From positions 13,826,001-13,890,000 of the forward strand of contig NC_086375.1 in NCBI RefSeq assembly GCF_036588685.1: 64,000 nucleotides of DNA. Reading direction: 5' to 3'. Source of the stretch: Mytilus trossulus. Lineage: Eukaryota. Positions 10,777 through 63,285 of this stretch are shown here, piece after piece. The first letter of the stretch is position 1, and every line of letters starts with the position of its first letter. The notes below the pieces were generated by a model. That model did no database searches and had not been told where the DNA came from. It saw only the letters and a program-made list of their open reading frames with translations. The position numbers were made by a program, and so were the translations under genes.

Positions 10777-10777
10777 A

Positions 10778-12039: not shown

Positions 12040-12840
12040 AAAGAAATGGAGAATGTGTCCCCATGGGCACAGGTGATGCCCCCTTGCAAACAACATTATA
12101 AAGGGACATCAATCAAAAACAATAAAAGTGACGCTACCCAAAATTGTACTTGATCTGAGTTTTGTGGTAATAAGTATTGTGTATAGCTTTCATAACATTT
12201 GATTGAGGCCAGAGGCGGATTTAGGGGAGGGGGCCTGGGCGCCAGGGGGCCCGGGCCTTCCCTTTTTGAAAAAAAAAATGGTTGCTTATATAGGGAATCA
12301 CTGAAGCGTGACTGGAACTCGAGAATGATTAAAGTGAACCCACTAAAATTCAAATTTGACCTGTATTTTGTGGTAGTAAGCAATATGTAAAAGGTTCATA
12401 ACATTTGGTTGAGGACGGAAACTAAACTTTTTGGAATTTTTCAATGTATAAAGGGGCATAACTCTAGAACAGTTAAAGTGACACCACCAAAGATTACAAA
12501 CTTGATCTGTGTTTATTTTGTAATAATCATTTTGTATAACTTTCATAACATTTGGTAGTGCCAAATAAACTCATCATAGATACCAGGACTAAATTTAGTA
12601 TATACGTCAGACGCGCGTTTCTTCTACAAAAGACTCATCAGTGAAGCTCGAATCCAAAAAAGTTAAAAAGGCAAAATAAAGTACGAAGTTGAAGAGTAAA
12701 CTTAAGTTAGGAAACGAAAACTAAATAAACATTTAGTAATTTATAAAGGGGCAAAACTCTAGAACAGTTTGTATGACACTACACAATTCAAACTTGATAT
12801 GTATTATGTTGTAATAAGCATTGAGTATAAGTTTCATTTG
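12040..12840 (-). mobile_element. Helentron-type non-autonomous element with ~160-bp internal tandem repeats, interrupted by a MITE and a retrozyme fragment
   Basis: Repeated AAAGGGGCATAACTCTAGAAC...AACTTGATCTG...TTTCATAACATTTGG units. It is the reverse complement of elements at 18335-19730 and 25717-26295. Confidence 0.65.
12604..12650 (-). ncRNA. Type-I hammerhead ribozyme (retrozyme fragment ~12563-12697), with mismatches in stems I and II
   Basis: Minus strand reads GAGCTTCA-CTGATGA-GTCTTTTGTAGAA-GAAA-CGCGCG-TC-TGACG. Confidence 0.8.
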
Positions 12841-14257
12841 ACTATATATATAAATATGTCACAGTTGTATAACAGTGTGGATTAGATATTTAGTGTATGA
12901 TATTGGATAGTTTATACGCTTTTGAAACCTGCACAATTTAACCAAGCACTTTTCCTTGTAAGATTAATCTCCCCAAACAATGCTTTACTTGTTATCTCTA
13001 CTCCTTCGCAACAACAAAAAATGATTGACGGAAGCGATCCACAGTCTCCATATGAGAGTTATTTCCCTGTTATATATTTGATATAATTGAAATATACTTG
13101 TTACTTGTAATCCATAAGGGATACACACCTAGTCTTTTGATATGAGGTTCAGAGTACATCCATAAGAAAATGATGTCAAGGTCGAAAGTCAAGGTCATTA
13201 TCTAAATTTTGATAATTTTAACGAATGATTCATTTTCTCGATTAGAAAAATAACGCAAATATAAATCGCTGTGAATATGTAAAACTATGCTTTTTCTTAT
13301 TTATCTTCTTCAAGTAAGTTTTAGATTCGCGTGATTTAATTGCCGCGAAATTGGTTATATGAGAGTGTCGAAATATTTTCACCAATCTTTTAGCTATGGC
13401 ATGTGGTAAAATAAATATATTGGTTAAATGGGTGTGTGGACATTAAACAGGAGTTTCCTCCCCTCATATTTTTTAATTACCTGTATTCGTGTATAAGTCA
13501 TTAACTATATACAGAAGAGACTTAGGGTCATTTGATTTGAGGTCCTTGCTTGATGACTTTGAAAGTCGAGCTAAATTTGATCTTCTAGATCTTGACCTTT
13601 GGTATAAATACAAAATCATACTTGATAAAGCTATGGAGTCCTTTGCATAAAGTTGGTAGATATATGACTTTCAATAGGTCACCTGGGAGTGACCTTTTGT
13701 AAACTGGGTGTCGCCGTGTCCTGTAGTGATTTCATTTCAAATTACCTAGAATTATATATTTCGGGAATCAGTGTGAAGAAACCTATCAGATGGTACTGGA
13801 AGTGAAATTTTAAAACTCGAAGCAATTTATCTCCCTTATTATATAGAAACCTTATATTTTTGTTACTTAAGCTATCATATGGGACCAACAGTGACATTTT
13901 CTGAACTGGACATAGCAAATTTGCTGCCTTTTTTTAGACAAAAAGCGCATAACAACCATATATTTTTTAAACCTATGATTTGACACCAACAGTTACTTTG
14001 AGTAAACTGCATGTAGCTTCTTAATGTGGAAAGACATTCAATTGTTATAAAAATAATTTCATTTTATTTTATAACTAAATAATATATCATGTAGCATGCA
14101 GTACCGGGGTATATGTGTCATAACATATCAGGATACTTATAAGGTTTACATTTATAATACACATAACTTTCTACAGTAATTTATGGGGCAAACTGTTTTA
14201 TATATAACCAAATAATTCATTTTTTTAACATTATTTCAGACATAAAGAGAAAAAGTA

Positions 14258-15961
14258 ATGGCCTCATCTGTCAATCACCTTTGCACAATTTGCCATGATG
14301 ATGGAATCTCCAATTCAGCAGTCACATGGTGCACAGAATGTGAAGTTTTTTTTTGTGGAGGTTGTGAAAAACATCACAGTAAGTCCAGACTGTCCCAAAA
14401 TCATAAAACCATGTCAGCTGAAGATTACCAAAAGTTACCTACATTCATGCAAGAAATAAGTAGCCAGTGCAAAGACCACAAGAAGAAGTTTGAACTGTAT
14501 TGTTCTTTCCATACCTGTCCATGTTGTGTCCAGTGCATCACTGATAAACATAATAAATGTCAAGACATGAAACCATTGTCAGATATCCTACAGAAAGTCA
14601 AATCATCTGCCTCAGTGCTACTTTTTGAAAAAGATTTGACGAATGTGAGGGAAAACTTAGATACAGCCATAAAGTATCTGAAAACCAAAATGAGTACCAT
14701 CAATACTAAAAAAACAAAAGCTGTTGAGGATATTAGGAATGTGAGAGAGTCTATCAATGATTACTTAAACAAATTAGAGCAAGACATACTGAATGATTTA
14801 GAGTCAAAACATTCAAAGCTACAATCAAACATGGCCACTATCGTGCAACAAATGGAACAGCAAGCCAGTCAAATAGACCAAATGCAGAACCAGTTCACCA
14901 AAATGACGCAATATGCCACAGAGTTACAGATGTATATTGGTCTAAGAGAAATTGAGAAAACTACAACACAGGGAGCAAAATATTTAGAAGATTTAGAAAA
15001 TGGAGACCACGTTAGTGAAAAAAATCTAGAGGTCAACATTTCATCAGCTCTACAATCAATTTTACAAGATATCAAATCATTTGGAGATATTAATATTAAT
15101 ACCACCTCTTCTACACTTCGACTAAAGACCAGCAGAAAAGATCAAGCCCAGCACTTGGTTCCAAACGTTCCTGTTATTGAACAAATTAAGCCATCCCTAT
15201 TGACAAGACTAACAAGTACAATAGATATGAAGTTGAATATATGGGCCTGTCTTATCTTACCTGATGGTGAATCTATAACACTTGATCGCAATAAAAAACA
15301 ACTACTGCTGTTCAGTAAAGATGGCATCTTCATCAGAAAAGTAATTTCATTCACAAAGCATCCATGGGGTGCTTGCTTTGTCAGAAATTATACAGTGGCT
15401 GTCACATTAAGATCAGCAAACCAGATAGCTTTGGTAGATGTAAAAAAGGATAGAATTATTCAAACAATCAAACTTTCGCATGATTGTTTTGGAGTGGCAA
15501 GTGATGGTAAAACTTTGGTCATCAGTAGTGGTGGCAGCCAGTGTACTACAGTGAATCTGAATGACATGTCTCATACAATCTTAGAAGGAATGGGACTTGG
15601 ATCTATTGCATTATTCCAAAGAAATATATATGGTATCAATTACCATGAAAACAAAGTATGCTGTTATAAAATTACTGGAGAACCTTTGTGGACATATCAG
15701 AACCCAGACATTGCCACACCACGAGGACTTTCATTAGATAAGAATGGCTTTGTTTATATAGCTTCCAATGGAAACAACAGTATCATGGTAGTATCACCAG
15801 ATGGTAAAACCTGTAAGAAAATACTATCAGAGGCTGATGGAATCAAAGATCCATGGCAAATAGATATTAACAGAGAAACAGGAATGATGATAGTGTCGAG
15901 TAGAATGAGTGATAATGACAGTGTTACAGACTATGAAACAGCTTTTGTGTATACAATTTAA
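14258..15961 (+). CDS. RING-less TRIM-like protein, copy 2, 567 aa
   Basis: Intact ORF with the same domain order as copy 1. Acceptor TTATTTCAG (AG 14238-14239) lies just before the ATG. Confidence 0.95.
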   Translation: MASSVNHLCTICHDDGISNSAVTWCTECEVFFCGGCEKHHSKSRLSQNHKTMSAEDYQKLPTFMQEISSQCKDHKKKFELYCSFHTCPCCVQCITDKHNKCQDMKPLSDILQKVKSSASVLLFEKDLTNVRENLDTAIKYLKTKMSTINTKKTKAVEDIRNVRESINDYLNKLEQDILNDLESKHSKLQSNMATIVQQMEQQASQIDQMQNQFTKMTQYATELQMYIGLREIEKTTTQGAKYLEDLENGDHVSEKNLEVNISSALQSILQDIKSFGDININTTSSTLRLKTSRKDQAQHLVPNVPVIEQIKPSLLTRLTSTIDMKLNIWACLILPDGESITLDRNKKQLLLFSKDGIFIRKVISFTKHPWGACFVRNYTVAVTLRSANQIALVDVKKDRIIQTIKLSHDCFGVASDGKTLVISSGGSQCTTVNLNDMSHTILEGMGLGSIALFQRNIYGINYHENKVCCYKITGEPLWTYQNPDIATPRGLSLDKNGFVYIASNGNNSIMVVSPDGKTCKKILSEADGIKDPWQIDINRETGMMIVSSRMSDNDSVTDYETAFVYTI

Positions 15962-21166: not shown

Positions 21167-21372
21167 AATTAAAGTTGAACTTGTTTCTCGTCTCTAGATA
21201 AAACATTTGCCTATATTATAATAAATGGTATGAGCCGCTTATCCTACCAATCTTCAAGATCTTTGTATCTTAATTTCAACATCAGATAATCTTGCATACA
21301 CTTCACTGTTCAAGCAGTAATGCTTGAAGGCATATACTATTTAATAAGATGATGGAAAGAGAGTCTGTAAAA

Positions 21373-22340: not shown

Positions 22341-24110
22341 TTAAATTTTATAAACAAAAGCTGTTTCATAGTCTGAAACACTGTCATCATCACTCTTTCT
22401 ACTTGACACTATCATTATTCCTGTTTCTCTGTTGATATTTATTTGCCATGGATCTTTGATTCCATCAGATCCTGACAATATTCTCTTACATGTTCTGCCA
22501 TCTGGTGATACTACCACGATACTGTTGTTTCCATTGGAAGCTATATAAACAAAGCCGTTCTTGTCTAATGAAAGTCCTCTTGGTTTGGCAACGTCTGAGT
22601 TCTGATATGTCCACAAAGGTTCTCCAGTAATTCTATAACAGCTGACTTTGTTTTCATGATAATTGATACCATAGATATTTCCTTGGAATAATGCAATAGG
22701 TCCCACTCCTTCCATTCCTTCTAAGATGGTATGAGACATGTCATTCAGATTCACTGTAGTACATTGGCTGCCAGCACTGGTGATCACCAAAGCTTTACCA
22801 TCACCTGCTACTCCATAACCTTCATGAGAAAGTTTAATTGTTTGAATAATTTTATTCTTTTCAACATCAACCAAAGCTATCTGGTTTGCTGATCTTAATG
22901 TAACAGCCACTGTATAATTTCTGACAAAGCAAACATCACAAGGATTCTTTGAGAATGTAAATACATTTCTGATGAAGATGCCATCGTTACTGAATAGCAC
23001 TAGTTGTTTTTTGTTGTTATCAAGTATTATAATTCTGCTATCAGGTAATATATGACAGGCCCATATATTTAACTTCATATCTTTTGGACTTGTTAGTCTT
23101 GTCAACAAGGATGGCTTTATTTGTTCAATTCCAGGAACTTCTGGAACCAAGTGCTGGGCTTGATTCTGTAGTCTTGTCAACAAGGATGGCTTTATTTGGT
23201 CAATTCCAGGAACTTCTGGAACCAAGTTCTGGGCTTGATTCTTTCTTTCGGTCTTTAATCGAAGTGTAGAAGATGTGGTATTGATATTAATATCTCCAAA
23301 TGATTTCACATCTTGTAAAAATGATTGAAGAGCAGATGAAATGTTGACCTCTAGATTCTTTTCTGTGAAGTGTCCTGCACTCTCTAAATCTCCTATATAT
23401 TTTGCAGTTTTCTCAATTTCCTTAAGACCAATATACATCTGTAGCTCTGTTGCATGTTGTACCAGATTGGTAAACTGACTCTGCATTTGGTCTATCTGAC
23501 TGGCTCCCTGTTCCATTTGTTGCAGGATAGTGGCCATGTTTGCTCTCAGTTTTGAATGTTTAGACTCTAAGTCATTAAGTATGTTTTGCTCTAATTTGTT
23601 TAAGTAATCATTGATCGACTTCCTCATATAACTGATTTCCTCAATGGCTTTGGTTTTCTGAATATTGATGGTGCTGATTCTGGTTTTCAGGTACATAATG
23701 GCTGTATCTAAGTTTTCCTTTACATTTTTCAAATCTTTTTCAAAAAGTTGAACAGAAGCAGATGCTTTTACTTGCTGTAGGGTATCAGACAAGTGTTTCA
23801 TGTCTTGGCATTTTTTATGTTTATCAGTGACACACTCTACACAGCATGGACAGGCATGGAAAGAACAGTAAAATTCAATCATCGTATTGTGGTCTCTGCA
23901 CTGACTACTTATTTGTTGCATGAATGTAGGTAACTTTTTGTAATTGTCAGCTGACATGGTTTTATGATGTTTAGACAGTCCTGACTTGCTGTGAGTTTTT
24001 TCACAGTCTCCACAAAAGAAAACTTCACATTCTGTACACCACGTGACTGCTGTATTAGAGATTCCATCATATTCACAAATTGTACAAAAGTGCTTGACTG
24101 ATGAGGCCAT
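22341..24110 (-). CDS. RING-less TRIM-like protein, copy 3, 589 aa, with an in-frame 75-bp internal duplication
   Basis: Intact ORF; acceptor TTATTTCAG (AG at 24130-24129). NQAQxLVPEVPGIxQIKPSLLTRL occurs twice (23094-23242). Confidence 0.95.
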   Translation of the reverse strand: MASSVKHFCTICEYDGISNTAVTWCTECEVFFCGDCEKTHSKSGLSKHHKTMSADNYKKLPTFMQQISSQCRDHNTMIEFYCSFHACPCCVECVTDKHKKCQDMKHLSDTLQQVKASASVQLFEKDLKNVKENLDTAIMYLKTRISTINIQKTKAIEEISYMRKSINDYLNKLEQNILNDLESKHSKLRANMATILQQMEQGASQIDQMQSQFTNLVQHATELQMYIGLKEIEKTAKYIGDLESAGHFTEKNLEVNISSALQSFLQDVKSFGDININTTSSTLRLKTERKNQAQNLVPEVPGIDQIKPSLLTRLQNQAQHLVPEVPGIEQIKPSLLTRLTSPKDMKLNIWACHILPDSRIIILDNNKKQLVLFSNDGIFIRNVFTFSKNPCDVCFVRNYTVAVTLRSANQIALVDVEKNKIIQTIKLSHEGYGVAGDGKALVITSAGSQCTTVNLNDMSHTILEGMEGVGPIALFQGNIYGINYHENKVSCYRITGEPLWTYQNSDVAKPRGLSLDKNGFVYIASNGNNSIVVVSPDGRTCKRILSGSDGIKDPWQININRETGIMIVSSRKSDDDSVSDYETAFVYKI

Positions 24111-24198
24111 TACTGTTTATCTTTAAATCTGAAATAAAGTGAGAAAAAAATTTCAGAAATGAATTATTCAGTTATACATAAAACAGTGCATTACTAAA

Positions 24199-30291: not shown

Positions 30292-31979
30292 TCAAATTTT
30301 ATATACAAAAGCTGTATAATTGTTATCATCACTTGTTTTACTTGACACTATCATCATTCCTGTTTCTCTGTTGATATCTATTGCCCATGGATCTTTGATT
30401 CCATCCTTCTCTGACAGTATTGTTTTACACGTTTTACCATCTGGTGATACTACCATGATACTGTTGTTTCCATTGGAAGCTATATAAACAAAGCCATTCT
30501 TGTCTAAAGAAAGACCCTTTGGTTCGGTAATGTCTTGGCTCTGATATGTCCAGAGAGGCCCTCCTGTACTTTTATAGCAGCAGACATTGTTTTGAGAGGA
30601 ATATATGCCATATATATTTCCTTGGAAAAGTGCAATAGGTCCCAGTCCTCCCATTCCTTCTAAGATGGTATGAGACATGTAATTCAGATTTATTTTAGTA
30701 CTCTGGCTGTTACCACCACTGATGATTAAAGTTTCACCCTCACTTGCCACTCCGGTACAACAATGAGGAAGTTTAATTGTTTGAAGAATTTTATTTTCTT
30801 TTACATCAACCAGTACTGTCTGGTAGGCGTATCCTAGTGTGACAGCCACTGCATTTTTTCTGACAAAGCAAGCATCCATGGGATATCCTATAAATGTAAC
30901 TACTTTTCTAACGAAGATGCCATCACTACTGAACAGCACTATTTGTTTTTGTAATAGTCAAGTATTATAAAAGTACCATCTGGTAGTATTAGACATGCAT
31001 GTATATCTAAATGCTTCATATCTTCTGGAAGTGCCAGTGTTGTCAACACGTTTGGCTTTATTTTTTCTATGCCAGGAACTTTTGGAACCAAGTGCTGAGC
31101 TTGATCTTTTCTTACAGCATTTATTTTTAGTGAAGAAGATATGGTATTAATATTAATATCTCCAAATGATTTGACATTTTGAAATATTGATTGAAGAGCA
31201 GATGAAATGTTCACCTCTAGATTCTTTTCTTCAGCACTTTCTAAATCTTCAGAATATTTTGTCGCTTGTGATGCTATTTTCTCAATTTCTCTCAAACCAA
31301 TATACATCTGCAGCTCTGTAGCATATTGCGTCATTTTGGTAAACTGGCTCTGCATTAGGTCTATTTGACTGGCTTGGTGTTCCATTTGTTGAACGAGAGT
31401 GTCCATGTTTGATTTAAGCTTTGAATGTTTAGAATCTAAGTCATTAAGTAGGTCTTGTTCCAATTTGTTTAAATAATCATTGATCAACTTCCTCATATAG
31501 CAGATTTCCTCAGTGGCTTTGGATTTCTGAGTATTGATAGTACTAATCTTGTTTTTCATATACTTTATGGCTGTATCTAAGTTTTCCTTCGCATCCTTTA
31601 AATCTTTTTCAAAAAGTTGAACCGAGGCCGATGATTTGACTTGCTTTAGGATATCAGACAAGGGTTTCATTTCATGACATTTCGAATGTTTATCAGTGAT
31701 GCACTGGACACAGCATGGACTGGCATGGAAAGGACAGTAAAGTTCAATTTTTTTCTTGTGGTCTTTGCATTGGCTACTTATTTCTTGCATGAATGTAGGT
31801 AACTTTCGGTAATCTTCAGTTGACATGGTTTTATGATTCGTAGACAGATGGAACTTACTGTGTGGTTTTTCACAGTCTCTACAAAAGAAAACCGCGCATT
31901 CTGTGCACCATATGACTGCTGGGTTGAATATCCCATCATCATGGCAAATTGTACAAAGGTTCTTGACTGATGAGGCCAT
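30292..31979 (-). pseudogene. TRIM-like copy 4, split by a 1-bp deletion in a homopolymer (pseudogene or assembly error; 562 aa if repaired)
   Basis: Two adjacent ORFs together give the full protein. An A5 run (T at 30946-30950) reads YYKNK* where one more A gives YYKKQIVLF, matching paralogues. Acceptor AG at 32007-32006. Confidence 0.88.
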
Positions 31980-32763
31980 TATACTTTTCTCTCTATTCTT
32001 TATATCTGAAATGAAAGGGGGAAAGTCTTTAATTTGAATTTATTCATCAGTTATTACCGAAAATGTTGAACCAATTTAAATGTATTTATACTATAGTTTT
32101 CTTTCATTCAAAGACCAATTACGACTTCTTTAAAAATTCATTTATTTATTCATTATCAGCTGATTGCAAATTATAGCTTTTTGGCAACATTTGTTTATCT
32201 ACTAATTAAAAAAGGTTTTATGGTAAGGTTAACTTGTTTCAGTTATAGTTAAACACCTAAGGATAGGTGTGTCTGGATAAGATTCCCAGTCGTCCAGAGG
32301 CCAGGGGTTTCTTATCTAGACACGTAGTATCTCAAGGTGTATAACTAGCATATTCCCTAAGGTAAACCCTGTATTTGCTAACATAGGTTTTTAAATGAAA
32401 AAGAACGGAAAGCATATTTCTTGACAATATCAAACTTTGATTTATAAGATTTTTTTATTATTTTTACATGAAACCCCACTTGACATCTTCTTTCAAACTT
32501 TGACAAGTGAGTAGATTTTAGAAATGTCGAAGTTGCTGTTTTGCATATGATTGTTAAACGCATGCGCTAATATGGAATAGCAGGCGAAGGTTGACTGTTT
32601 CGTGCATTATTTTTACAAAACAAAATACAACCTGCTCTTTGTATGAAATTGTTAATATGGGCGGGGACATGACGAACAACATTTTGAGTCAGGCATTGAA
32701 TTTGGTAGAAAAAACAAAAGATAAAGACTAAATTATAATTCAAAGTTCTTATACATGGGTCAT

Positions 32764-33161
32764 GAAACGCGCGTCTGGCGTACTAAGTTATAATCCTGAT
32801 AACTATTAAGACCACTGGGTCGATGCCTCTGCTGGTGGACGTTTCGTCCCCGAGGGTATTACCAGCCCAGTAGTCAGCACTTCGGTGTTGACATGAATAT
32901 CAATTATGTGGTCATTTTTTATAAATTTCCTGTTTATAAAACTTTGAACTGTTCGAAAAACTAAAGATTTTCTTATCCCAGGCATAGATTACCTTAGCCG
33001 TATTTGGCACAACTTTTTGGAATTTTGGATCCTCAATGCTCTTCAACTTTGCATTTGCTTGGCTTTATAACTATTTTGATATGAGCGTCACTGATGAGTC
33101 TTATGAAGACGAAACGCGCGTCTGGCGTACTAAATTATAATCCTGGTACCTTTGATAACTA
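32764..33161 (+). mobile_element. Greater-than-unit-length hammerhead retrozyme (monomer 347 nt, cleavage site to cleavage site 32776-33122)
   Basis: GAAACGCGCGTCTGGCGTACTAA occurs at 32764 and 33111, with a complete hammerhead at the 3' junction. Confidence 0.9.
33083..33128 (+). ncRNA. Type-I hammerhead ribozyme, canonical core
   Basis: Stem I CGTCA/TGGCG; CTGATGA; stem II GTCT-TATGA-AGAC; GAAA; palindromic CGCGCG stem III; GUC cleavage after 33122. Confidence 0.93.
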
Positions 33162-36100: not shown

Positions 36101-36684
36101 ATTTCATCCCTTTTCAACTGATTATTATATTTTTCTGATGTTGTACTGCTTAACCACTGTCCAGTGGGCGTCCACAAGCTTGTTTCATCTCACCACTGTC
36201 ACATTATGTATGTGACTGTCCCACGTCAGAATCATGTTATTCAGATGTTGTCCTCTGCTGCTAATTGTTTCATATCACATATTCTTACTATAATGTTAGA
36301 TAGTATGTACTAAAACAGGTATTTCGATTTTTTAGCATCGACATTTGATTTACAACTCCTCTTGAGTAAATACTTCAATAGCAACTTTCAAATCCAGGTT
36401 GGAATGCCGTGTAAAGTTATGTTAAACAGATGTTTAGTGCAGCACTTGGGAGATTTATGTAATATAACTTTGTTTAGAAACAATGTTCAATGCAGTGAAG
36501 GAAAATCCATCTTATATCTTTGGTTGAGACTTCAAAAGAATATAAGAAGATACATTTGATTGACCAGGACTTCTTTTTTTACTCTCACTAAGTGTATTGT
36601 CTATACCTTATTTCGTTTTCAAACAACAGATGTAATATGATTAACACACAAAAACGAAGTTGTTACATTAACACATCAATATAT

Positions 36685-36803
36685 AGTCATCAAAAGTACC
36701 AGGATTATAATTTTATACGCCAGACGCGCGTTTCGTCTACATAAGACTCATCAGTGACGCTCAGATCAAAATAGTTAAAAAGCCAAAACAAATACAAAGA
36801 TGA
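36685..36803 (-). mobile_element. 5'-truncated retrozyme insertion with intact hammerhead (36718-36762) and 7-bp target-site duplication
   Basis: AATATAT at 36678-36684 and 36804-36810. The empty site is visible in the neighbouring array unit at 38605-38611. Confidence 0.88.
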
Positions 36804-38282
36804 AATATATCTGTCACGTAGATAGTACCGGTGCATACAACATTCGCATTTATACTCAAAGAACCATTCAATTTTAATTAGAATTTGTATCAACATCCTC
36901 ACAACTTTATTCTATTCTAAATTATATTATCAATTGCAAATTTATCATTTTACAATCATCTATAGCTATAACCACCCATTTTTAAACTGCTATTAATTCT
37001 TTCTTAAATACTCCCCTTATAATCTCTTATTGTTTGGAAAAGTATTTTATAATATACAAGTTTCAAACATTTATATTTACGAGTACATGTGAACTTTATT
37101 ATACACAGTTGCTTAGTTTGCAAAAAAAAGGTCAATACTTGTTACATAATTTTAAATTTCTGCACAGCATACAAAATTTCTGAATAACAACGTGACGCTT
37201 CATTTAGTTTTTAGTTGCTTAGACAATGTATTTAAACTTAGCTAGGTGTCCCATATATTGTACATTTAACCTCCAACTGCATATTCCTGTCTGTCAAAAA
37301 GTTTATGGTAAAAATATTCAGATCTTTCAATTTTTACAAATACAGTGTTTTATAACTTAAAATTCAACATTTATATAAAAAAAAAACTAGCAACAGTCCA
37401 TAATTGCAAAGAACAAAGAGTCTTGATTTTGTTTAAATGAATGTTGAAACATAATAGATTTCACATTGGAGAAAATTAGAGGAACTGGAGAATAAAGTCT
37501 TTCTTATCATTTATTGCTTATTTATACACAGTCCAAAATTTGATTGAAATGATATCTTCACTCTTTTTTTTTATTTATTTGTTTTAAATATCTGTAAAGA
37601 TTATTAAAGATACAGAGATTAATTTGGTACAGCAGCCGTACTTTTCGTCTACATAATACTCAGCGGTGCTCAAATCAGCATATAATAACAACATCCCAGT
37701 TTAAGGCCTCTCTAAACATATGTAGGTCCAAAATATGTAAATGATTCCTATACTTCACAAACACCGTTAACTGTCTTTTCATCTTGGCCTTTCGTGTGAG
37801 TGTTTTACAACTTTTATTCCATCCCTTTTCAACTAATTATTATATTTTTCTTATGTTGTACTGATTAACCACTGTCCAGTGGGCGTCCGCAAGCTTGTTT
37901 CATCCAACAAAATTATGTAGTTGACTGGCCCACGTCAGTAGCATGTTATTCAGTGGTTGTCGTCTGCTGCTAATTGTTTCAGTTGAAATCATACCACATC
38001 CTCTTACTTTAATATCAGATAGTATGTACTAAAACATGTAAATTTCTAGCACCTACAGTTGATTAACAACTCCTCTTCAGTAAATGCTTTCATAGCAACT
38101 CTAAAATCCAGGTTTAAATGTTTTCTTAAAATTATGTAAATGGTTTAAAAATATGTTTAGTGCAGCACTGGGCAAATTTATGTAATAAAACTTTGTTTTG
38201 AAGGACACATTTGAAATTTTTATATCCAATACACTGAAGGGAAATCCATTTTATATCTTTGGTAGAGACTTCAAAAGAATAT

Positions 38283-38466
38283 AATAAACTCATTATAGAT
38301 ACCGGGTATAAAATTTAATTTTTAAGACAGACGCGCGTTTCGTCTACAAAAGACTCATCAGTGACGCTCGTATCAAAAATGTTTTGAAAGGCCAAATAAA
38401 GTACGAAGTTGAAATGCATTGAGGACCAAATATTCCTAAAAGTTTTGCCAAATACAGCTAAGGTAA
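38283..38466 (-). mobile_element. 5'-truncated retrozyme with hammerhead (38326-38370)
   Basis: Minus strand GAGCGTCA-CTGATGA-GTCTTTTGTAGAC-GAAA-CGCGCG-TC. It is absent from the paralogous unit near 36540. Confidence 0.85.
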
Positions 38467-39623
38467 GACCATGTATTTGATTGTATATGATTCCCTCTAA
38501 GTGTCGTTGAAGTACGCTGTAGATTGTCTATACATTATTTCGTTTTCAAGCAGTTCATGTAATATGATTAACACACAAAAACGAAGTTGTTACATTCACA
38601 CATCAATATATCTGTCACGTAGGTAGTACCAGTACATACCACAATTGCATTAATATTTATAGAACCATTCAATTTTAGTTAAAATTTGTTCGTGTTGTTT
38701 CTTATTTACTATTTATAACTGTTGATGTAAATGTCCTTTAATTTTTTGAGTCTTTGTTTACTCCTTGGTTTTGATTGTTATTGTCTTGTATCAACATCCT
38801 TACAACTTTAGTCTATTCTAAATTATATTTTTAAATGCAAAGTGATAATTTTACAGTCATTAGAGCTATAAACAACTAAGTTTCAAACATTTATATTTAC
38901 AAGTATATTTGCACTTTATTATACATAGTTGCTTAGTTTGCAAAAAAAACATCAATACTCGTAACATTATTTAAATTTCTGCAATGCATACAAAATTTCT
39001 GTATAAAAACGTGACGCTTCATTAATGTTTTTAAATGCTAAGACAAAGTATTTAAACTTAGCTAGGTGTTCTATATATTGAACATTTATCCTCAAACTGT
39101 GAATTACTGTCTGTCAAAAAAATCAGGGTAAGAATATTCAGATATTTCAATTTTTCAAAAAAAGTGTTTTTTACTTCAAATTCAGCATTTTATAAAACTT
39201 TGGCAACAGTCCATAGTTGCATAGAATAAGAAGTCTTCATTTTATTTAATAGAAAGTTGAAACATAATATATATTTTCACATTATCGAAAACAGAGGAAA
39301 GGGGGAATTTACTCCCACTTATCATTTATTGCTAATTTAGACACAAATTTAAATAAGATAATATCTTCTGTATTTGTTTTTAGTTGATATTTGTAAAGAT
39401 AACCCAAAAAACAATGATTAATTTGGTAAAACCGCCGAGCATTTCGTCTACATAAGACCCAGTGGCGCTCAAATCAGCATAAAATTACCATGTTCATACC
39501 TCTGACTATTTGAAGCTCCATACTATGTATTGGCTACCTATACTACACATCGTTTACTATTGTTTTATCTCGGCCTCTAGTAAGTACTTTACAACTAATC
39601 TTTCATCCCTTTTCCAATCATTA

Positions 39624-46120: not shown

Positions 46121-46943
46121 AAATTCATAGAAATATTTTTTCGTATGCAACCGGATGTGATGTACTAATTTTAGTGATTTTGCACCTAATGAAGAAACTT
46201 TTGTTGAATAAACTGTATGGAATTTTTATTCCTTTGTAATACTGGTTATTTCTAGCATTACTGTCACGTTTTGTCATAATCAGTTCAATAGTTTGAGAAA
46301 AATCTAGTATAATTTAATGTCATGTAATGTTGTCATTTGAGCAGTATATTTAACAGAGTCATAAAGCACGATGTTTGGTTAGCCCAAAACCAGGTACAAT
46401 CTATACCATTTTCTCTTAAAATTACATGTAATACCTCAGGAATTTGGCAGTTGTTATCTGTTATTTGGAATCCATGTCTATTGCATTGTCATTTGTTTTT
46501 GTTGCACTTCAGTGTTCTGTTGTTTATTGCTTTTCTCTTATAGGTGATGTATATCCCTCGGTTAAAGTTTGTAATCCGGATTTTTTTCTCTTAATCTATT
46601 TATAACGTTGGAACAGCAGTCTATCTTTATCTTCCTTACTAAGTGACTCCCACAAATAGAGTTAAATCATAAATTATGATTATGTTATGTTTCATTTTGA
46701 AGAAACTTTTCAAAATACCAGTTATCGTTTTTTAGTTTGCAAAATATAAATGTATGTTTGTTTAAATTTTTTAGTCAGTTGATCTGTATTTCTGTACAGT
46801 TTTGGCTGCTGGATCCCAATTATTGTCACATACACATATATTTATATATATCTGTTTGGGTTGATTACTCAAAAATGTCATTTTAATAGTACTAAACCAA
46901 CTGTCATGTAACTTGGGGGTTAAGCTGGCTGTGAAACCAGGTT

Positions 46944-47169
46944 AATATTTATCAAAAGTACCAGGATTATAATTTAGTACGACAGACGCGCGTTTCGTCT
47001 ACATAAGACTCATCAGTGACGCTCATATCAAAATATTTATAGAGCCAAACAAGTACAAAATTGAAGAGCATTGGGGATCCAAATTCCAAATACGGCTAAG
47101 GTGATCTATACCTGGGATAAGAAAATCCTTAGTTTATTTCGAAAAATTCAAAGATTTGTAAACAGGAAA
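46944..47169 (-). mobile_element. 5'-truncated retrozyme with hammerhead (46980-47024), inserted inside a plus-strand twister-like motif (~46900-47217)
   Basis: Canonical core CTGATGA...GAAACGCGCGTC on the minus strand. The flanks rejoin as ...AAACCAGGTT|CAACCCAC...GTCTGTACCAAGTCCGG. Confidence 0.85.
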
Positions 47170-47382
47170 CCAACCCACAATTGTCTTTGAAAAATGTCTG
47201 TACCAAGTCCGGAATATAAAAGGTGTGTTTCACGCGTCCCGTTAGTTGAATACGCTTGATTTCATACTTTTACTTTCTTTATACGGTGTGATATTTTTGA
47301 GTCAAACTATTCCTTGTAACTGCATGCAGTTTTATAAGACAAAATAACTTTCATACATTTCAGAAGGAAAGATAAAAGTACA

Positions 47383-49086
47383 ATGTCTTCATCGGCCAAG
47401 CACATTTGTACAATATGTCATTATGATGAAGTCCCGAAAACAGCAGTCACGTGGTGCACAGAATGTGAAGTTTTCTTTTGCGGAGACTGTGAAAAACCTC
47501 ATAAAAAATTAAGATTGACCATAAATCATAAGACCATATCATCTCAAGATTATCAAAAGTTACCGACATTCATACAAGAAATAAGCAGTCAGTGCAGAGA
47601 CCACAATAAGAACTTTGAACGTTACTGTTCTGTTCATGCATGTCCCTGCTGTGATCAATGCATCACTGATAAACACCAGGCATGTGGAAACATGCAACTG
47701 CTATCAGACGCTATTAAGCAAGTAAAAAATTCTTTCTCAGTTGAGTTTTATAAAAACGAATTGATGGACGTAAATGAAAACTTAAATAAAGCCATAAAAT
47801 ACCTGACAGCGAGGATCAGTACAGCCAATTCCCAGAAAACTGAGGCATTTGATGAAATCCTGTATACTCGAAAGTCTATCGATGACTACTTTGATAAAAT
47901 AGAGCAGAAAGTACTCGACGAACTAGAGAATAAACATTTGGAGCTGAAATTAAACATGGCCTCCATCGTACAACAAATGGAACAGCGACTGCATCAGATA
48001 GAAAAAATTCAGAGCGAGTTTACCAAAATGACACAATCTGCAACTGCGTTAGAACTGTATTTTGGTCTGAAGGAAATTGAAAAAACTACATCAGAAGCCG
48101 CAAAATACATTTCAGATTTAAAGGAAAGTGGCGATCACTTCAGTGAAAAGAATTTAGAGGTTAAAATTTCATCTGATCTTCTATCAAGTATTCAAGATGT
48201 CAAATCATTTGGAGATATTAATATCAATACGACGTCTTCTACTCTCCTTGTCAAGACCGGAAGAAAGAATCAAGCACTATGCGTTCCTAGAAGTGATCGA
48301 ATTAAACCAGCTTTGCTAAAGAGACTGACAATTCCCCAAAATATGAAGTTTTTGAATATACTGGCGTGCTTAATATTGTCTGATGGTAAGGTAATAATTC
48401 TCGATTACAACAAAAAACAACTACTGCTTTTTAGTGACGCTGGCTTCTTCGTTAAAGAAGTATTTACATTCAGAGAATATCCTCTCGATGCATGCTTTGT
48501 CATAGATAATACAGTGGCTGTCTTATTAGGATCAGCAAACAAGACAGCTCTGGTGGATGTTGAAGAGAAGACAATTATTGAAGAAGTTGATCTTTTTCAT
48601 TATTGTTATGGAGTAGCAAGTGATGGTAAAAACTTAATTATTAGCAGTGATAATAATAAGATTATCAAAGTGAATTTGGACGATATGTCTCAAACAATCT
48701 ATAAAAAAGGAGTGGAGGAACTATTTTATGTTTCGTTATTGCAAGGAATTATCAATGGTACCACGACCTTTCAAAACACAATCTGCTGCTATAAAAGTAC
48801 CGGGGAACCTCTCTGGACATTTCAGCGCCAAGACATTGACGTACCAGGACGACTTACATTAGACAAGAATGGCTATGTTTATATTGCTTCTTGTAGGAAC
48901 AACAGTATCGTGGTATTGTCACCAGATGGTAAAACCTGTAAGACAATACTATCAGAGGCTGATGGAATCAAATCTCCTTGGGCAATAGATATAAACAAAG
49001 AAAAGGGATTGATGGTGGTGTCCAGTTTTATGAGAGATAATAGACGTGATGCTTTCTATGATACAGCATTTATTTATAAAATTTAA
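47383..49086 (+). CDS. RING-less TRIM-like protein, copy 5 (most divergent full copy), 567 aa
   Basis: Intact ORF with both B-boxes conserved. Acceptor CATTTCAG (AG 47362-47363). Confidence 0.95.
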   Translation: MSSSAKHICTICHYDEVPKTAVTWCTECEVFFCGDCEKPHKKLRLTINHKTISSQDYQKLPTFIQEISSQCRDHNKNFERYCSVHACPCCDQCITDKHQACGNMQLLSDAIKQVKNSFSVEFYKNELMDVNENLNKAIKYLTARISTANSQKTEAFDEILYTRKSIDDYFDKIEQKVLDELENKHLELKLNMASIVQQMEQRLHQIEKIQSEFTKMTQSATALELYFGLKEIEKTTSEAAKYISDLKESGDHFSEKNLEVKISSDLLSSIQDVKSFGDININTTSSTLLVKTGRKNQALCVPRSDRIKPALLKRLTIPQNMKFLNILACLILSDGKVIILDYNKKQLLLFSDAGFFVKEVFTFREYPLDACFVIDNTVAVLLGSANKTALVDVEEKTIIEEVDLFHYCYGVASDGKNLIISSDNNKIIKVNLDDMSQTIYKKGVEELFYVSLLQGIINGTTTFQNTICCYKSTGEPLWTFQRQDIDVPGRLTLDKNGYVYIASCRNNSIVVLSPDGKTCKTILSEADGIKSPWAIDINKEKGLMVVSSFMRDNRRDAFYDTAFIYKI

Positions 49087-49093
49087 ATCGACC

Positions 49094-55142: not shown

Positions 55143-56920
55143 ACCTTCTTTTGATATAATTGTGTGCAGTGTACTTTAAAAAAAAATCATAAAAATTAGA
55201 GTTTTAACCTTAGTAGTGAATTTGCAGAAAATAAGGTTATACATCTGGTATAAATATAATTGTATAATAATCAGATAGAAATCACTTATAACGTTTGCTC
55301 ATGTTTATTTGAATAAAAGAATATATAGGCTACCAATACAAAACGTATATTTAAAGACCAAGATACATTCATAAGCGTCTATACCGTATGTTGGCCTACT
55401 TATGACCTTAGAACGGGGTATAATCAACGAGCAATTTATGAAAGAAGATATGTACACTTTATAGAAATATTTTGATATGACATGAACTAGCAATTAAAGA
55501 TAAATAAAGAAAATCCTACATTATTTTATATATGAAAACCAACTATACACGAACGAAAATTATCTCGAGCAGCAACCAACGATAATCACTTAAGTACAGG
55601 TTTGTGCGTTAGGACAGCAATATACAAAATGTGGCGGGGATAAACATGTGTGGGAGTGTTAACCTATGACAATACAAAGTCAATACTACAAAAGAAAACA
55701 TAGAATTACATCATTTTAGAGAATAATCGAATCCTCGTTTAATGAGCCCTGAGCATTATTATTTTCATTTCAATACAAAAGACAAATTATACCGATCTAA
55801 GAGTACCCACAATTTCTTAAAATTGTGTTCAAGGCTCAAATGTAAATAATCAAACATGTTTTCTCTGCCATCTTTGCATACAAATATATAATTTGTTGTT
55901 TCAACCTTCTTTTGAAATTATTGTGTGCAATGTACTTTGAAAAAAATCATAAAAATTAGAGTTTCAACCTTAGTAGTGAATTTGCAGAAAATAAGGTTAT
56001 ATATCTGGTATAAATATAATTGCATAATAATTAGATAGAAATCCCTTATAACATTCGCTCATGTTTATTTGAATAAAAGAATATAAAAACGAATAATACA
56101 AAACGTATATTTAAAGACCAAGATACATTCCTAAGCGTCTATACCGTATGTTAGCCTACTTATGACATTAGAACGGGGTCTAATCAACGAGCATTTTATG
56201 AAAACAAGATGTTTACACTTTATAGAAATATGTTGATATGACATGAACTAGCAATTAAAGATAAATAAAGAAAATTCTACATTATTTTATATATGAAAAC
56301 TAACTATACACGAACGAAAATCATCTCGAGCAGCAACCAACGATAATCACTTAAATACAGGTTTGTGCGTTAGGTCAGCAATATATGAATAAACTCATCA
56401 TAGATACCAGAACTAAATTTTATATTATACGCCAGACGCGCGTTTCGTTTACAAAAGACTCATCAGTGACGCTCGAATCCAAAAAAGTTAAAAAGGTCAA
56501 ATAAAGTACGAAGTTGAAGAGCATTGAGGACCAAAAACCCTAAAAGTTTTGCCAAATACAGCTACGGTAATATATTGCCTGAGGTAGAAAAGCCTTAGTA
56601 TTTCAAAAAATTCTTAATTTTGTAAAATGTTAATTTATAAATATAACAATATCAATGACAATTCATATCACCACACACAGTGTTAACCTGTGACAAAAGA
56701 GAGTCAATACTACAAAAGAAAACATTGAATTAAATCATTTTAGAAAATAATCGAATCTTCGTGTAATGAGCATTATTATTTTTCACTTCAATACAAAAGA
56801 CATATAATACCGATCTAAGAGTACCCACAATTGCTTAAAATTGTTTTCAAGGCTCAAATGCAAATAATCAAACATGTTTTCTCTGCCGTCTTTGCATACA
56901 AATATATACTTTGTCGTTTT
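55143..56920. repeat. Tandem duplication (period 761 bp); second copy carries a retrozyme insertion
   Basis: CCTTCTTTTGA.AT.ATTGTGTGCA.TGTAC at 55144 and 55905. Confidence 0.9.
56387..56680 (-). mobile_element. 5'-truncated retrozyme with hammerhead (56430-56474)
   Basis: Canonical core on the minus strand. Absent from the first duplication copy near 55620, where ~30 bp is present instead. Confidence 0.85.
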
Positions 56921-57845: not shown

Positions 57846-58290
57846 AAAAGGCAACAGTAGTATACCGCTATTCGAAATTCATACATCGATTGAGGAAAAA
57901 ACAAATTCGGGTTACAAACTAAAACTGAGGAAAACATTTAATATAAGAGGTGAACAACGAAACAACAGAAACACAACGCTAAAATGCAACACAGAAACGA
58001 ACTATAATATAACAATGGCCATTTTCTTGACTTGGTACAGGACATTTAAAAAAAAATGGTGGGTTGAACTTGGTTTTGTGTCTAGCAAAATCTCCGCTTT
58101 TATGGCAATGTTAAATATAACATTAAAATTACAACATTACATGACAGGACTAAAATAAAAAAATAAATGGGAGAACATACAGGACAGAGAAACACACAAA
58201 TACTAGCTTTCAAAAGGTACCAGGCTTATAATTTAATACATCAGACGTGCGTTTCGTCTATATAAGACTCATCAGTGACGCTCAGATAAA
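57846..58290 (-). mobile_element. Non-coding retroposon carrying a hammerhead (58239-58283) followed by a twister-like motif (~58016-58110)
   Basis: Minus strand order: GAGCGTCACTGATGAGTCTTATATAGACGAAACGCACGTC, ~130 nt, twister-like ...CAACCCACC...GTCCTGTACCAAGTCAAG, then the family tail GCGGTATACTACTGTTGCC. Confidence 0.75.
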
Positions 58291-59990: not shown

Positions 59991-60061
59991 AACTGATTTT
60001 AACTGGGATTTGTGGTCGAAACTTCGTACTTTATTTGACTTTTTAAAACTTTTTTGGATTC

Positions 60062-60106
60062 GAGCGTCACTAATGAGTCTTATGTAGACGAAACGCGCGT
60101 CTGGCG
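60062..60106 (+). ncRNA. Hammerhead ribozyme with core mutation (CTAATGA, G5>A), probably inactive; retrozyme fragment ~60020-60150
   Basis: GAGCGTCA-CTAATGA-GTCTTATGTAGAC-GAAA-CGCGCG-TC-TGGCG. Confidence 0.8.
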
Positions 60107-60502
60107 TATATATGAAATTTAGTCCTGGTATTTATGAAGAGTTTATTTATTGTGATCAAGGTACAATGAGCAATCCTTGTTGCCAACGAATTTGCAACAC
60201 TTTGTCTCACATTTCGTGACGTTCGTCACGGGTGGGACATAAACCAATATGTTTGTCATTTTTTATTTTGTTCATTTTTCTTGTTATGGTCTTATCTTTA
60301 ATTTTCATGGTTTTTGATTTCACCCCTTTTTCCCTTTCTATGTATCGTAACCATTTTGATAATTATAAAGAAGAGAAGAATATGCATGATTAACATATAT
60401 TTGTTGCATTAAGTTACTAGGCATTTTCTCGAAAAAGAAACATTGATTCAGTTATAATTGAGGGCTAACCATTTTATATTACTGAAAATTGATATATTTT
60501 AG

Positions 60503-61420
60503 ATTGTGAAAAAACTCAAAGGAATTCCATACGTGACAGAACTAAAACCCATTAGCTCAATATCACCAAAAGATACATTTATCATGGAAGTAATATGCAA
60601 TCCACCCAATGACCAGCAATGTGTTCCAAATGTTTGTGAAATTGATCAGATTAAGCCATCATTATTGAGACGACTTACTATTCCAAAAGATATCAAGTCT
60701 TTAGGAATAATATGGTCCTGTCTGGTATTACCCGATGGTAAATCTATAATAATTCATCACGACAAAAAACGTCTACATCTGTTCAGTAATGAAGGAATAT
60801 ATATCAGAAAGATTATAACATTCAAAGAATATCCAAATACTGCTTGCTTTGTCAGTAATAGTACAGTTGCTGTCACATTAGAAGCTAACCAGATAGCACT
60901 TGTAGATGTAGAAAAAAACAAAATAATGAATACAACAAAACTTTCTCATAAATGTTATGGAGTAGCGAGTGATGGTAAAACTTTGGTCATCAGTAGTGAT
61001 GACAAGTGCACTAGCGTGAATCTGATTGACATGTCTCATACAATTTTAGAAGGCGTGGTTAAACTGAAAAGTATTTCATTATTCCAAGGAAATATATATG
61101 GTACCGTTTTCTATGAAGACCAAGTAAGGTGCTATACAAGTACTGGAGACGTACTTTGGACATTTCAGAGCCATGATATTGACTATTCAGGAGGACTTGC
61201 GATAGACCAAAATGGCTTTGTCTTTATATCTTCTTATGAAAAGAACAAAATAGTGGTAGTATCACCAGATGGTCAAACCAGTTAGACAGTCTTATCAGAA
61301 GCTGATGGAATCAAATCTCCTGTAGCAATAGACATTAACAGAGAAACAGGATTGATGTTAGTGTCAAGTGATATAAGTGCTGACAGTTGTGATCAAACAG
61401 GTTTTGCTTATAAAATCTAA
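60503..61420 (+). pseudogene. Propeller-only exon of a TRIM-related gene with one in-frame TAG (61283-61285)
   Basis: Acceptor TTTTAG at 60501-60502, ~35 non-homologous codons, then homology from QQCVPNV..IDQIKPSLL. After the TAG (Lys codon in paralogues) the frame continues cleanly for 44 codons to ...GFAYKI* at 61420. Confidence 0.8.
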
Positions 61421-62044: not shown

Positions 62045-62436
62045 GGAAGTTCGCTTCTCAGTTTCAGAGTTATTAACTTTTTAAAACACTAGTTTATATT
62101 GATAGTGGATTAATAAAGGAATACAAAGAGCAAAAAAATATATAGGTCACTGTGCTTGTTTTCGACATATTAGTCTATGAAATTTTGGCGGGAAAATATT
62201 CTCTCATAACTTTTCTTAGCTTTATCATTGACAAGTAGAAATTCTCAAAAGCTGTTCAAAGAATTTAAATCTTATAAGACTTTTACAGATGGCTTATCAA
62301 TATACATGTAAAAGATTTATAAAAAGACAAATGGGGGTCACCACTCCAGGCATATTTTTTCAAAGCTTTCAAATGGATAAAACCAGAGGATTCCGAACAT
62401 CTGACAAAAAATCCAAGACATGACAAGCCAGCTTCC
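62045..62436. mobile_element. Second TTAA-flanked MITE with imperfect TIRs
   Basis: TTAA|GGAAGTTCGCTT ... AAGCCAGCTTCC|TTAA. Confidence 0.55.
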
Positions 62437-63036
62437 TTAACAATTTTAAAGACCAAGGATGTATAAATATTTGAGCTATATGACATTGAGTGGCCCAACA
62501 GAAAGAGATTTTTCAGTTTGACTGCTCTGGTATCGTTCGTCCCTCTTTTATGAATATTCATAGGAACAAAAATATACAGATTTGGATGATTTCAAATGAT
62601 AAGCGGTATTGTTTCTGTCTGAAAAGAAGGAATTGAACTTGTTAACATCAAAATGACTGTAAGATAAAGCAGGTTAATATATTTTACTAATATTTGAGAA
62701 AATTAGTTTTAAAATGGTTCATATTTGTGTTTCTCGTTTCTCGATTTTTTTATAGATTAGAGCGTTGGTTTAATTAACTGTATTTACAGTTTCACAATAG
62801 TTCTTTTCAGGAGTTCTTTCTATCTTGCTGTTTGGTGTGAACCAAGGCTCCGTGTTGAAGGAAGTTCTTTGACCTATAATGGTTTACTTTTTACTAATTG
62901 TGATTTGGATGTAGAATTGTCTCATTGGCACACATAAAACAACATCTTGTATCTATAAAACAAATTTCCTCGTTGTTTTATGTTTCAATGTTTTGATAAC
63001 TTTTACATTCATGCATTTCACAATGCCTATATTTAA

Positions 63037-63285
63037 TTTTTTATAAATTTCCTGTTTACAAAACTTGGAATTTTCTAAAAACTCAGGATTTTTTTTATTA
63101 GGTATAGATTACCTTAGCCGTATTTGGCACAACTTTTTGGAATTTTGGATCCTCAATGCTCTTCAACTTTGTACTTGTTTGGCTTTATAAATATTTTGAT
63201 TTGAGCGTCACTGATGAGTCTCATATATGTAGACGAAACACGTGTCTGGCGTACTAAATTATAGTCCTGGTTCCTTTGATAACTA
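63037..63285 (+). mobile_element. 5'-truncated retrozyme with hammerhead (63203-63251)
   Basis: Matches 32915-33161. Core CTGATGA...GAAA-CACGTG-TC-TGGCG. Confidence 0.88.

Follow-up and report, generated by a model that had tools for sequence, protein, structure and literature searches.

The copies of a hammerhead retrozyme scattered over this Mytilus trossulus locus raise the question of where on the element's RNA reverse transcription begins, and whether that RNA is a circle. The window, that is, the whole 64,000-nt stretch of DNA analysed, holds nine hammerhead copies, one beyond the eight listed in an earlier note, and all of them (9/9) traverse the ribozyme's own cut. Past C17, the nine diverge from the element at ~39-41 nt (subfamily 1) or 46-47 nt (subfamily 2).

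In subfamily 1, the insertion at 32764..33161 (+) comprises 1.1 units, running from 12 nt ahead of one cut (after 32775) to ~39 nt past the next (after 33122). This copy is genuine and exceeds one 356-nt unit, its overlapping ends being one substitution and a 9-bp deletion apart. It carries a type I hammerhead with an intact core (33085..33128, +; Rfam, 33 bits, E 2.3e-4) and, at 32814..32871 (+; unit positions +48..+105), the sole full copy among the nine window insertions of a stem-loop shared with Naiad elements, which the alignment and folding of homologues predict to be a signal recruiting reverse transcriptase (RT). Further subfamily-1 insertions lie at 36680..36804 (-; 125 bp, cut after 36723, Rfam hammerhead 36717-36760-), with a short AT-rich target duplication relative to an empty paralog near 38605; at 46941..47169 (-; 229 bp with internal deletions, cut after 46985, Rfam hammerhead 46979-47022-); at 63038..63285 (+; 248 bp, cut after 63246, end at +39, Rfam hammerhead 63205-63252+); and at 58204..58290 (-; cut after 58244, end at ~+40, Rfam hammerhead 58238-58281-), the ninth copy absent from the earlier list.

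Subfamily 2 is represented by a 5'-truncated insertion at 12563..12696 (-; 134 bp, cut after 12610) with the fixed 3' end and an empty paralogous site, whose hammerhead at 12604-, mutated in stems I/II, was located by motif search; by 38283..38466 (-; 184 bp, cut after 38330, Rfam hammerhead 38332-38370-), the 3' flank of which is a Naiad-B-like remnant (71%); by 56388..56682 (-; 295 bp, cut after 56435, Rfam hammerhead 56429-56472-), where ~30 bp of target is missing relative to an empty paralog near 55625; and by 60020..60149 (+; 130 bp, cut site after 60101, Rfam hammerhead 60064-60107+), with core G5 mutated (CTAATGA). Three decayed copies on the minus strand (34320-34409, 37593-37677 and 39419-39476; 75-79% identity) probably multiplied along with local duplications, and an old internal fragment lies at the window edge (63707..63990, +; 71% identity). 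As aligned, the eight copies of the earlier note measure 125-405 bp, in agreement with its ~120-400 bp. Its observation that they cross the cut stands at all eight sites and extends to the ninth, but crossing is not universal: in a larger sample 152 of 170 fixed-end copies do so, the other 18 being stubs of ~30-45 bp.

The copies belong to a non-LTR retrozyme of 356/363 nt with two subfamilies. Every unit has a type I hammerhead, although the Rfam matches in the window all fall just under the gathering score (E 2e-4 to 0.08); array units of 356 and 363 bp lie within the metazoan non-LTR retrozyme range of 150-450 bp, GC is under 50%, and no ORF of at least 150 aa overlaps the window copies. 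Judged by unit size and the two-family description, the element apparently fits the published Mytilus galloprovincialis retrozymes, two type I hammerhead families with repeats of ~350-390 bp, represented by clones MN642551-MN642576 (Cervera & de la Pena 2020, PMC7229834). Exact 19-mer matches number 17,709 genome-wide, and empty paralogous sites are available for 24 of 206 insertions. The dispersed copies were made by retrotransposition, as expected of a metazoan non-LTR retrozyme. At the 24 empty sites the 5' junctions show frequent microhomology, accompanied by a duplication of 0-8 bp or by the loss of a little target sequence. Target-site duplications are in small excess at 7-10 bp (20/182 vs ~5.7 in controls); most sites have no duplication, or a deletion, and the idea of long duplications as the norm was dropped as not typical of the insertions. 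Also rejected was an antisense hammerhead of the kind used in viroid-like RNA-RNA replication: the look-alike string of subfamily 1 is the reverse complement of the stem-loop, has no Rfam match and is gone in subfamily 2. The full monomer folded as a linear strand is unremarkable (z -0.33), and for isolated hammerheads the minimum-energy structure is not the hammerhead fold.

Fixed 3' ends and random 5' ends

End statistics were taken from a 1.68-Mb genome sample, using copies at least 85% identical and unselected for their 3' end. In subfamily 1, 54 of 71 3' ends fall at +38..46 past the cut (1.8 expected if uniform), and in subfamily 2, 31 of 38 fall at +42..49 (0.8 expected); without the identity filter, 68/109 and 51/84, respectively, are at the fixed end. 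Thus, the 3' ends are sharply clustered, not uniformly spread, with one cluster per subfamily. Genome-wide, exact patterns for the subfamily-1 end site give 4,196 copies that stop and 3,892 that continue. At an internal control anchor the element breaks off in just 157 of 17,709 matches, and many of the 100 such cases listed resemble small indels.

The 5' truncation is random, at ~0.0045 per nt. Of 155 copies, three have 5' ends no further than 3 nt from the cut, where 4.2 would be expected (upper 95% bound 5.6%), and no run-off peak at the hammerhead cut is seen among these 155. The first 177 matches hinted that 5' ends were over-represented immediately before the cut; this surplus vanished in the larger sample, where the 5'-end hazard at the first cut is 0.0040 against 0.0019-0.0082 elsewhere. 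At the second cut the hazard is higher (0.012), on 5 events. The earlier claim of a common 3' end with variable 5' truncation therefore holds in the window and in the 1.68-Mb sample alike. A 30-40-bp tail, an optional feature of Penelope-like elements (PLEs), was not seen, each subfamily having its single end cluster. Inverted 5' arms were sought among 253 insertions, and two-armed inverted retrozymes of the kind described for cephalopods were set aside on finding one head-to-head pair. The combination of a fixed 3' end, heavy 5' truncation and partial tandems is the pattern of PLE-mobilised sequences.

A stem-loop shared with Naiad elements

The fixed end lies ~4-6 nt upstream of the 58-nt stem-loop (+48..+105). 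Comparison of the priming site with the 3' ends of autonomous Penelope-like elements, a check suggested in the earlier note, revealed a matching stem-loop, likewise 3' of the fixed end, in two hammerhead-free Naiad (Penelope-like) families, A and B. Retrozyme and Naiad B are 86% identical over 71 nt (E 3e-18), and this stretch is their only match at E<0.05, the rest of the retrozyme being unmatched to Naiad units. The same 21-pair fold is found in 4/4 sequences with four compensatory pairs, all but one of which come from Naiad A, the covariation support being these four sequences. Naiad copies stop at their own fixed T-rich end at 11 of 12 loci in family A and 10 of 16 in family B, and tandem Naiad copies run past it into the stem-loop. 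Length profiles are alike (KS p=0.13), with medians of 180 for the retrozyme and 226 for Naiad B. The retrozyme itself keeps an internal stem-loop in 36 of 170 copies.

Families A and B encode an N-terminal GIY-YIG domain with two Cys, CxC and DKA motifs and a C-terminal RT, the Naiad B ORF being 1008 aa long; their young tandem units measure 4,277 and 3,370 bp, and no canonical hammerhead was present in the six Naiad loci scanned. By motifs, layout, 3.4-4.4 kb size and hammerhead absence we assign them to Naiad. The retrozyme shares its signal with an active autonomous PLE. The partner comparison covered, among the Penelope clades of this genome, Naiad families A, B and C alone; in Naiad C there is an analogous hairpin only, with no sequence match to the retrozyme stem-loop. 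Its tandem continuation is seen in two short stretches.

Two explanations would place the fixed end outside RT initiation. The RNA itself might end at +40..+46 by termination or processing and be primed at its 3' end as in a SINE; the end is indeed T-rich, but this reading leaves a conserved Naiad-shared stem-loop beyond the end and missing from terminal copies, the RNAs described in print are circles and monomers of unit length (PMC7229834), and Poseidon_Ac starts internally whatever the RNA 3' end (PMC11167929). We consider it the least probable of the readings weighed here. Alternatively, the end could be set at the DNA level, an endonuclease resolving a cDNA/DNA intermediate at the motif. 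The PLE 'tail' has been ascribed to EN-mediated resolution (Craig et al., PMC8557442), an EN of the Penelope type cleaves the AT-rich terminal sequence of its own element (PMC11167929), and some Naiad copies are located at or within retrozyme ends, three of them tail-to-tail against ~0.45 expected. Nevertheless, the compensatory pairing indicates a single-stranded (RNA) structure, and the genomic ends of Poseidon_Ac fall at the RT start sites mapped in vitro (PMC11167929), which makes a DNA-level origin very improbable.

Naiad-retrozyme chimeras or hybrid two-armed insertions were looked for at 7 junctions, and no hybrid insertion was found; nesting accounts for 2 head-to-head, 2 Naiad-to-retrozyme and 1 tail-to-tail case. 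Two tail-to-tail cases are unexplained by nesting.

The template of reverse transcription

The sharp 3' end, the random 5' truncation, the missing run-off peak and the Naiad-shared stem-loop support the earlier proposal of a fixed RT start on a template uncut at the hammerhead, which rightly left both a circle and an uncleaved multimer open. The 398-bp copy at 32764-33161, offered there as consistent with more than one round on a circle, is indeed longer than one unit but does not speak for a circle, because long genomic arrays exist from which linear read-through RNA could template it, and because Poseidon_Ac uses uncut linear RNA in the same geometry. Nor does the fixed end need a circle, since Naiads without a canonical hammerhead show the same geometry.

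A third possibility is that RT copies a cleaved linear monomer and, on reaching its 5' end, jumps to a 3' end, either that of the same molecule or that of a different one. The R2 RT, known for template jumping, provides a precedent. Linear monomers make up 5-25% (PMC7229834). Random jumps between co-expressed subfamilies should nonetheless have produced ~60 chimeras across the cut, against 0/155 found; variants are linked across the cut (0/2000 permutations), no excess of indels marks the cut in 184 copies, the junction being clean, and no run-off peak is seen. All this is compatible with a jump inside a single molecule if it is perfectly faithful, yet we regard jumping as improbable.

More weight attaches to a scenario in which the same Naiad enzyme and internal start act on an uncleaved linear read-through transcript of an array, circles being a by-product. 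Uncut linear RNA serves as template for Poseidon_Ac in vitro (PMC11167929), mussel hammerhead cleavage is slow (~0.1 per min; PMC7229834), and long homogeneous arrays, some of >25 units and one reaching at least 57, are available as sources; this scenario equally predicts that chimeras and a cut-site peak are missing and that the junction is clean. On the other hand, daughters would always be shorter than mothers and only 36/170 copies keep an internal stem-loop, so that lineages would need re-expansion. No clear 5' transduction was found among 253 insertions either; five pairs with a common 5' flank were discarded as candidates, local duplication, Naiad C ends or a short repeat explaining them.

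Unit variation also bears on this matter. Units diverge by 0.039 within insertions and 0.074 between them, the contrast being weak in subfamily 2 (0.050 vs 0.064); the last two units of 8 young arrays differ at 0-3 positions, against 2-20 between arrays. In 18 of 21 multi-unit insertions private variants are fixed in both units, and in those of 2-5 units this counts against a linear template, for it implies a single-unit bottleneck. A linear template also offers no reason for an intact catalytic core. At the template level the subfamily-1 hammerhead core has 1 of 449 changes against 11.9 expected, in counts that are non-independent and come from a multi-unit set partly chosen as best hits, and the conservation is weak when counted by position (1/12 vs 91/344); once inserted, the core mutates freely. 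The subfamily-2 core shows no conservation (2/123 vs 1.5 expected; 12 insertions). Several long arrays have variants common to multiple units, in one case recurring every 8 units. Arrays can therefore become homogeneous and long once inserted, and the longest did grow after insertion. Taken together, these indirect arguments favour a circular template, and the linear read-through transcript is possible but rather unlikely.

We therefore propose, with a probability of about 0.55, that a Naiad EN/RT, predicted to bind the stem-loop, begins to copy the retrozyme a few bases 5' of it, with a re-ligated circle as the probable template, leaving 5'-truncated insertions with a fixed end. Arrays or two-hammerhead copies would be transcribed, self-cleaved and ligated to circles, as published for M. 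galloprovincialis (PMC7229834). The Naiad protein would then bind the stem-loop at +48..+105, as its shared sequence, fold and position suggest, and nick AT-rich DNA, with cDNA primed in the T-rich motif at ~+39..+46; the position is that of the observed ends, the mechanism that suggested by Poseidon_Ac. RT would run back across the ligated cut of the presumed circle to a random stop, sometimes after more than one round, and joining of the 5' end, in many cases through microhomology, would duplicate 0-8 bp of target or delete a little of it. The chances are about even for the wider picture of a ribozyme circle whose sole link to its helper is a Naiad RT-initiation stem-loop, circled repeatedly from one site into chromosomal DNA, with a single-unit bottleneck each cycle and arrays regenerated. 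If true, the 58-nt stem-loop would serve Naiad RT as a portable start signal, internal initiation would extend to the Naiad clade, and a short RNA tag might direct target-primed insertion of circular RNA.

Comparison with known systems

Earlier publications cover the retrozyme class, its circular RNAs and, in general terms, a link to Penelope elements. For M. galloprovincialis, circle-templated RT by a PLE has been proposed, and circles dominate in northern blots of mussel RNA (PMC7229834). Which enzyme moves animal retrozymes, and whether circles are the true templates, is called open in the 2020 papers and in a 2026 preprint. No account of the fixed end or of the Naiad signal was found in the openly accessible literature that was searched. 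The published Poseidon_Ac assay could put the proposal to the test, since it specifies a partner (Naiad B), a 58-nt RNA signal and the start position to be expected.

Like the M. galloprovincialis retrozymes, the element is both tandem and dispersed, low in GC and without LTR, PBS or ORF; the available text on those contains no insertion-end mapping, 5' truncation, start signal or partner clade (PMC7229834), and that of a 2020 review describes repeats without a conserved motif pointing to an autonomous partner (PMC7761336). On the grounds of co-occurrence and pLTR homology in Xenopus, Li, Clavereau & Pollet (2026, bioRxiv 10.64898/2026.07.22.740005) argue that animal retrozymes derive from PLEs and are themselves non-autonomous. 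That preprint has a vertebrate focus and, in its available parts, no end mapping, start signal or Naiad partner; unlike the Xenopus case, the present retrozyme matches Naiad units in the stem-loop only.

For Poseidon_Ac, Frangieh et al. (2024, PMC11167929) showed in vitro that uncut linear RNA serves as template, with RT starting ~85-92 nt past the hammerhead cut, and that hammerhead mutants leave insertion unchanged. Both systems have a fixed internal RT start downstream of the cut, marked by genomic ends, together with required RNA 3' of the start and AT-rich targets (PMC11167929). Poseidon_Ac differs in being autonomous, with a C-terminal EN, two start sites, a tail and an uncut linear template (PMC11167929), whereas the retrozyme is non-coding, with one site per subfamily and almost no inverted arms, and its putative partner has an N-terminal EN and no hammerhead.

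Naiad PLEs are likewise 5'-truncated, with partial tandems and fixed 3' ends, and abundant in Mytilus (Craig et al. 2021, PMC8557442); families A and B of this genome have the stem-loop and T-rich end in common with the retrozyme. Unlike it, Naiads encode an EN-RT and are without canonical hammerheads (PMC8557442), and their account, in its available text, describes neither a start stem-loop nor a retrozyme partner (PMC8557442). Non-autonomous elements of Chlamys match their partners at the 3'-end sequence (PMC8557442), whereas the retrozyme matches its putative partner just beyond the end.

Ends of the retrozyme copies

Rfam and motif searches identified nine type I hammerheads in the window, recovering all eight listed in the earlier note together with a ninth at 58238-58281 on the reverse strand. 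Read in the sense direction, every subfamily-1 copy leaves the element some 39-41 nt past C17 and every subfamily-2 copy some 46-47 nt past it, and five further decayed retrozyme fragments are present. For copy counts we pooled 1.68 Mb of the 1.3-Gb animal genome, composed of the window (G000:C3:13826001-13890000), 60 grid-spaced 10-kb blocks, internal-anchor loci, best hits and loci picked on their 3' end. A natural unit read circularly (356 and 363 bp, as in natural arrays) served as the alignment reference for each copy, giving 369 hits with a detection floor of about 30 bp, below which copies are missed. The repeat fits the retrozymes described from Mytilus (PMC7229834) well enough to suggest a mussel genome. 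Best-hit and end-selected copies are excluded from the 3'-end test, and best hits from the 5'-end test.

Among copies of at least 85% identity, 54/71 of subfamily 1 end inside one 9-nt window (1.8 expected) and 31/38 of subfamily 2 inside one 8-nt window (0.8 expected). With the identity filter off, 68/109 and 51/84, respectively, lie at the fixed end, many of the off-window copies being decayed and ending slightly short. Retrozyme arrays share this end position with single copies. Genome-wide, 4,196 exact subfamily-1 tails stop at the fixed site versus 3,892 that continue; at an internal control anchor, 157 of 17,709 fail to continue. The exact terminal base is blurred, since the targets are AT-rich and the match decays gradually across the ATTTA motif common to both subfamilies. 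The common 3' end proposed from the window thus holds, the end counts excluding uniformly spread ends.

The 5' ends have a long-tailed distribution, with a near-constant stop rate of 0.004-0.005 per nt: 152 of 170 copies cross the first cut, 34 are longer than one unit and 8 reach two. Stops within 3 nt of the cut number 3 in 155 copies (4.2 expected), and run-off at the 5' end of cleaved monomers therefore contributes little. Empty paralogous sites, found for 24 of 206 insertions, reveal that the target was either duplicated over 0-8 bp or shortened by as much as about 30 bp, frequently with 5' microhomology, a pattern suggestive of target-primed insertion.

Naiads and the shared stem-loop

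Reverse transcriptase (RT) fragments within the 1.68-Mb sample pointed to Naiads, a group of Penelope-like elements (PLEs), as the partner. There are three young families, A, B and C. In both Naiad A (1056-aa frame, 4,277-bp tandem unit) and Naiad B (1008-aa frame, 3,370-bp unit), the N-terminal domain is GIY-YIG, and CxC and DKA motifs are present; a search of both for a hammerhead found none. Their copies end at fixed T-rich sites of their own, and tandem copies run on into a stem-loop. That of Naiad B matches retrozyme positions +45..+115 past the cut (86% identity over 71 nt, E 3e-18); nothing else matches between Naiad B and the retrozyme. The same 21 pairs are predicted in four sequences (both retrozyme subfamilies, Naiad A and Naiad B), with compensatory change in four pairs, and in each of them the stem starts ~4-6 nt past the fixed end. 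At the template level the stem-loop is among the least variable retrozyme parts, and terminal retrozyme copies always lack it. The length profiles of Naiad B and the retrozyme do not differ significantly. Naiad C has a hairpin at about the same place, unrelated to that of A and B.

In Poseidon_Ac, another PLE, reverse transcription is described as beginning inside the RNA and requiring sequence 3' of the start, with which its genomic ends coincide (PMC11167929). By analogy, retrozyme copying would use an internal start of this type, and we regard initiation by a Naiad as probable (roughly 0.8). Terminal Naiad copies (loci L264/L265 and L275/L276) have no stem-loop behind their 3' end; insertions that comprise the full length plus a pseudo-LTR therefore require that the template be tandem, circular or jumped. 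The template puzzle is the same as the retrozyme's, although Naiads have no hammerhead.

At locus L281 (~3220-3300) a retrozyme piece directly follows a Naiad B 3' end; it terminates at the fixed site despite a hammerhead skipped via short microhomology. Insertions of Naiads in retrozymes and the reverse occur on contigs G000:C1 (6628486-6629625, 2270383-2272225, 23839277-23839718) and C2 (49164019-49165594). Three tail-to-tail junctions (~0.45 expected) hint that the AT-rich terminal motif may be targeted. The Naiad C open frame often ends at 480 aa, and a SECIS-like match (L292:2362-2426, + strand, 32.3 bits, E 0.0066) lies within its 3' UTR; this is possibly a selenoprotein Naiad.

Nature of the RNA template

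The 398-bp copy at 32764-33161, which the earlier note called consistent with reverse transcription going more than once around a circle, is not decisive, because arrays of dozens of units exist, Poseidon_Ac copies uncut RNA (PMC11167929) and Naiads show the same geometry without a hammerhead. Template jumping between molecules is unlikely: subfamily chimeras are absent (0/155), variants on either side of the cut are linked, and no junction scars occur in 184 copies.

A linear multimer could also serve as template rather than a circle. Yet the units of young arrays are identical while each array has its own haplotype; a complete 15-unit insertion has 3 singleton changes, another array none in 13 units, and private variants are fixed in both compared units of 18/21 multi-unit insertions. 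Some long arrays do contain shared or periodic variants and therefore expanded after insertion, so that homogeneity need not stem from reverse transcription. Only 36/170 copies keep an internal stem-loop, and a purely linear lineage would therefore shrink. The subfamily-1 catalytic core is almost constant in templates, though readily mutated after insertion; this conservation is, however, weak in a position-wise count, and subfamily 2 does not show it. Circles are reported as the main retrozyme RNA form in mussel (PMC7229834). Given an internal start by Naiad, we thus favour a circular template.

An array of ~31 kb (G000:C1:269252-300448, parts in loci L093, L094 and L051-L060) has an 8-unit higher-order pattern within the part examined, and represents satellite-like growth following insertion.

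Other features of the window and relation to published work

Single-frame B-box genes of ~570-590 aa lie at 3159-4943, 14246-15961 and 47338-49086 (+) and at 22341-24116 (-), in a cluster with a split gene (30292-32039, -) and a partial one (60503-61285, +). One member has a beta-propeller match. They are TRIM-like paralogs in both orientations, two of which appear broken. Direct repeats at 397-696 and 1685-1984 (spacing 1,288), and at 10597-10896 and 11037-11336 (spacing 440), show 100% identity across 300 nt or more and are either very recent duplications or assembly artefacts. Repeated blocks spaced 1.6-2.8 kb at 34100-42000 contain decayed retrozyme copies and a Naiad-B-like remnant (71%).

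Neither the accessible portions of PMC7229834, PMC7761336, PMC8557442 and bioRxiv 10.64898/2026.07.22.740005 nor paper searches turned up a description of this fixed end, of the shared stem-loop or of a Naiad as partner; supplements may bear on the point. The retrozyme class, its self-cleavage, its circles, a circle-templated model of reverse transcription and the PLE link are already in print (PMC7229834; PMC7761336; bioRxiv 10.64898/2026.07.22.740005); added here are the tests of circular, linear and jumping templates. The fixed end is real and extends genome-wide in an already known retroelement, and the mechanism proposed is specific and testable.
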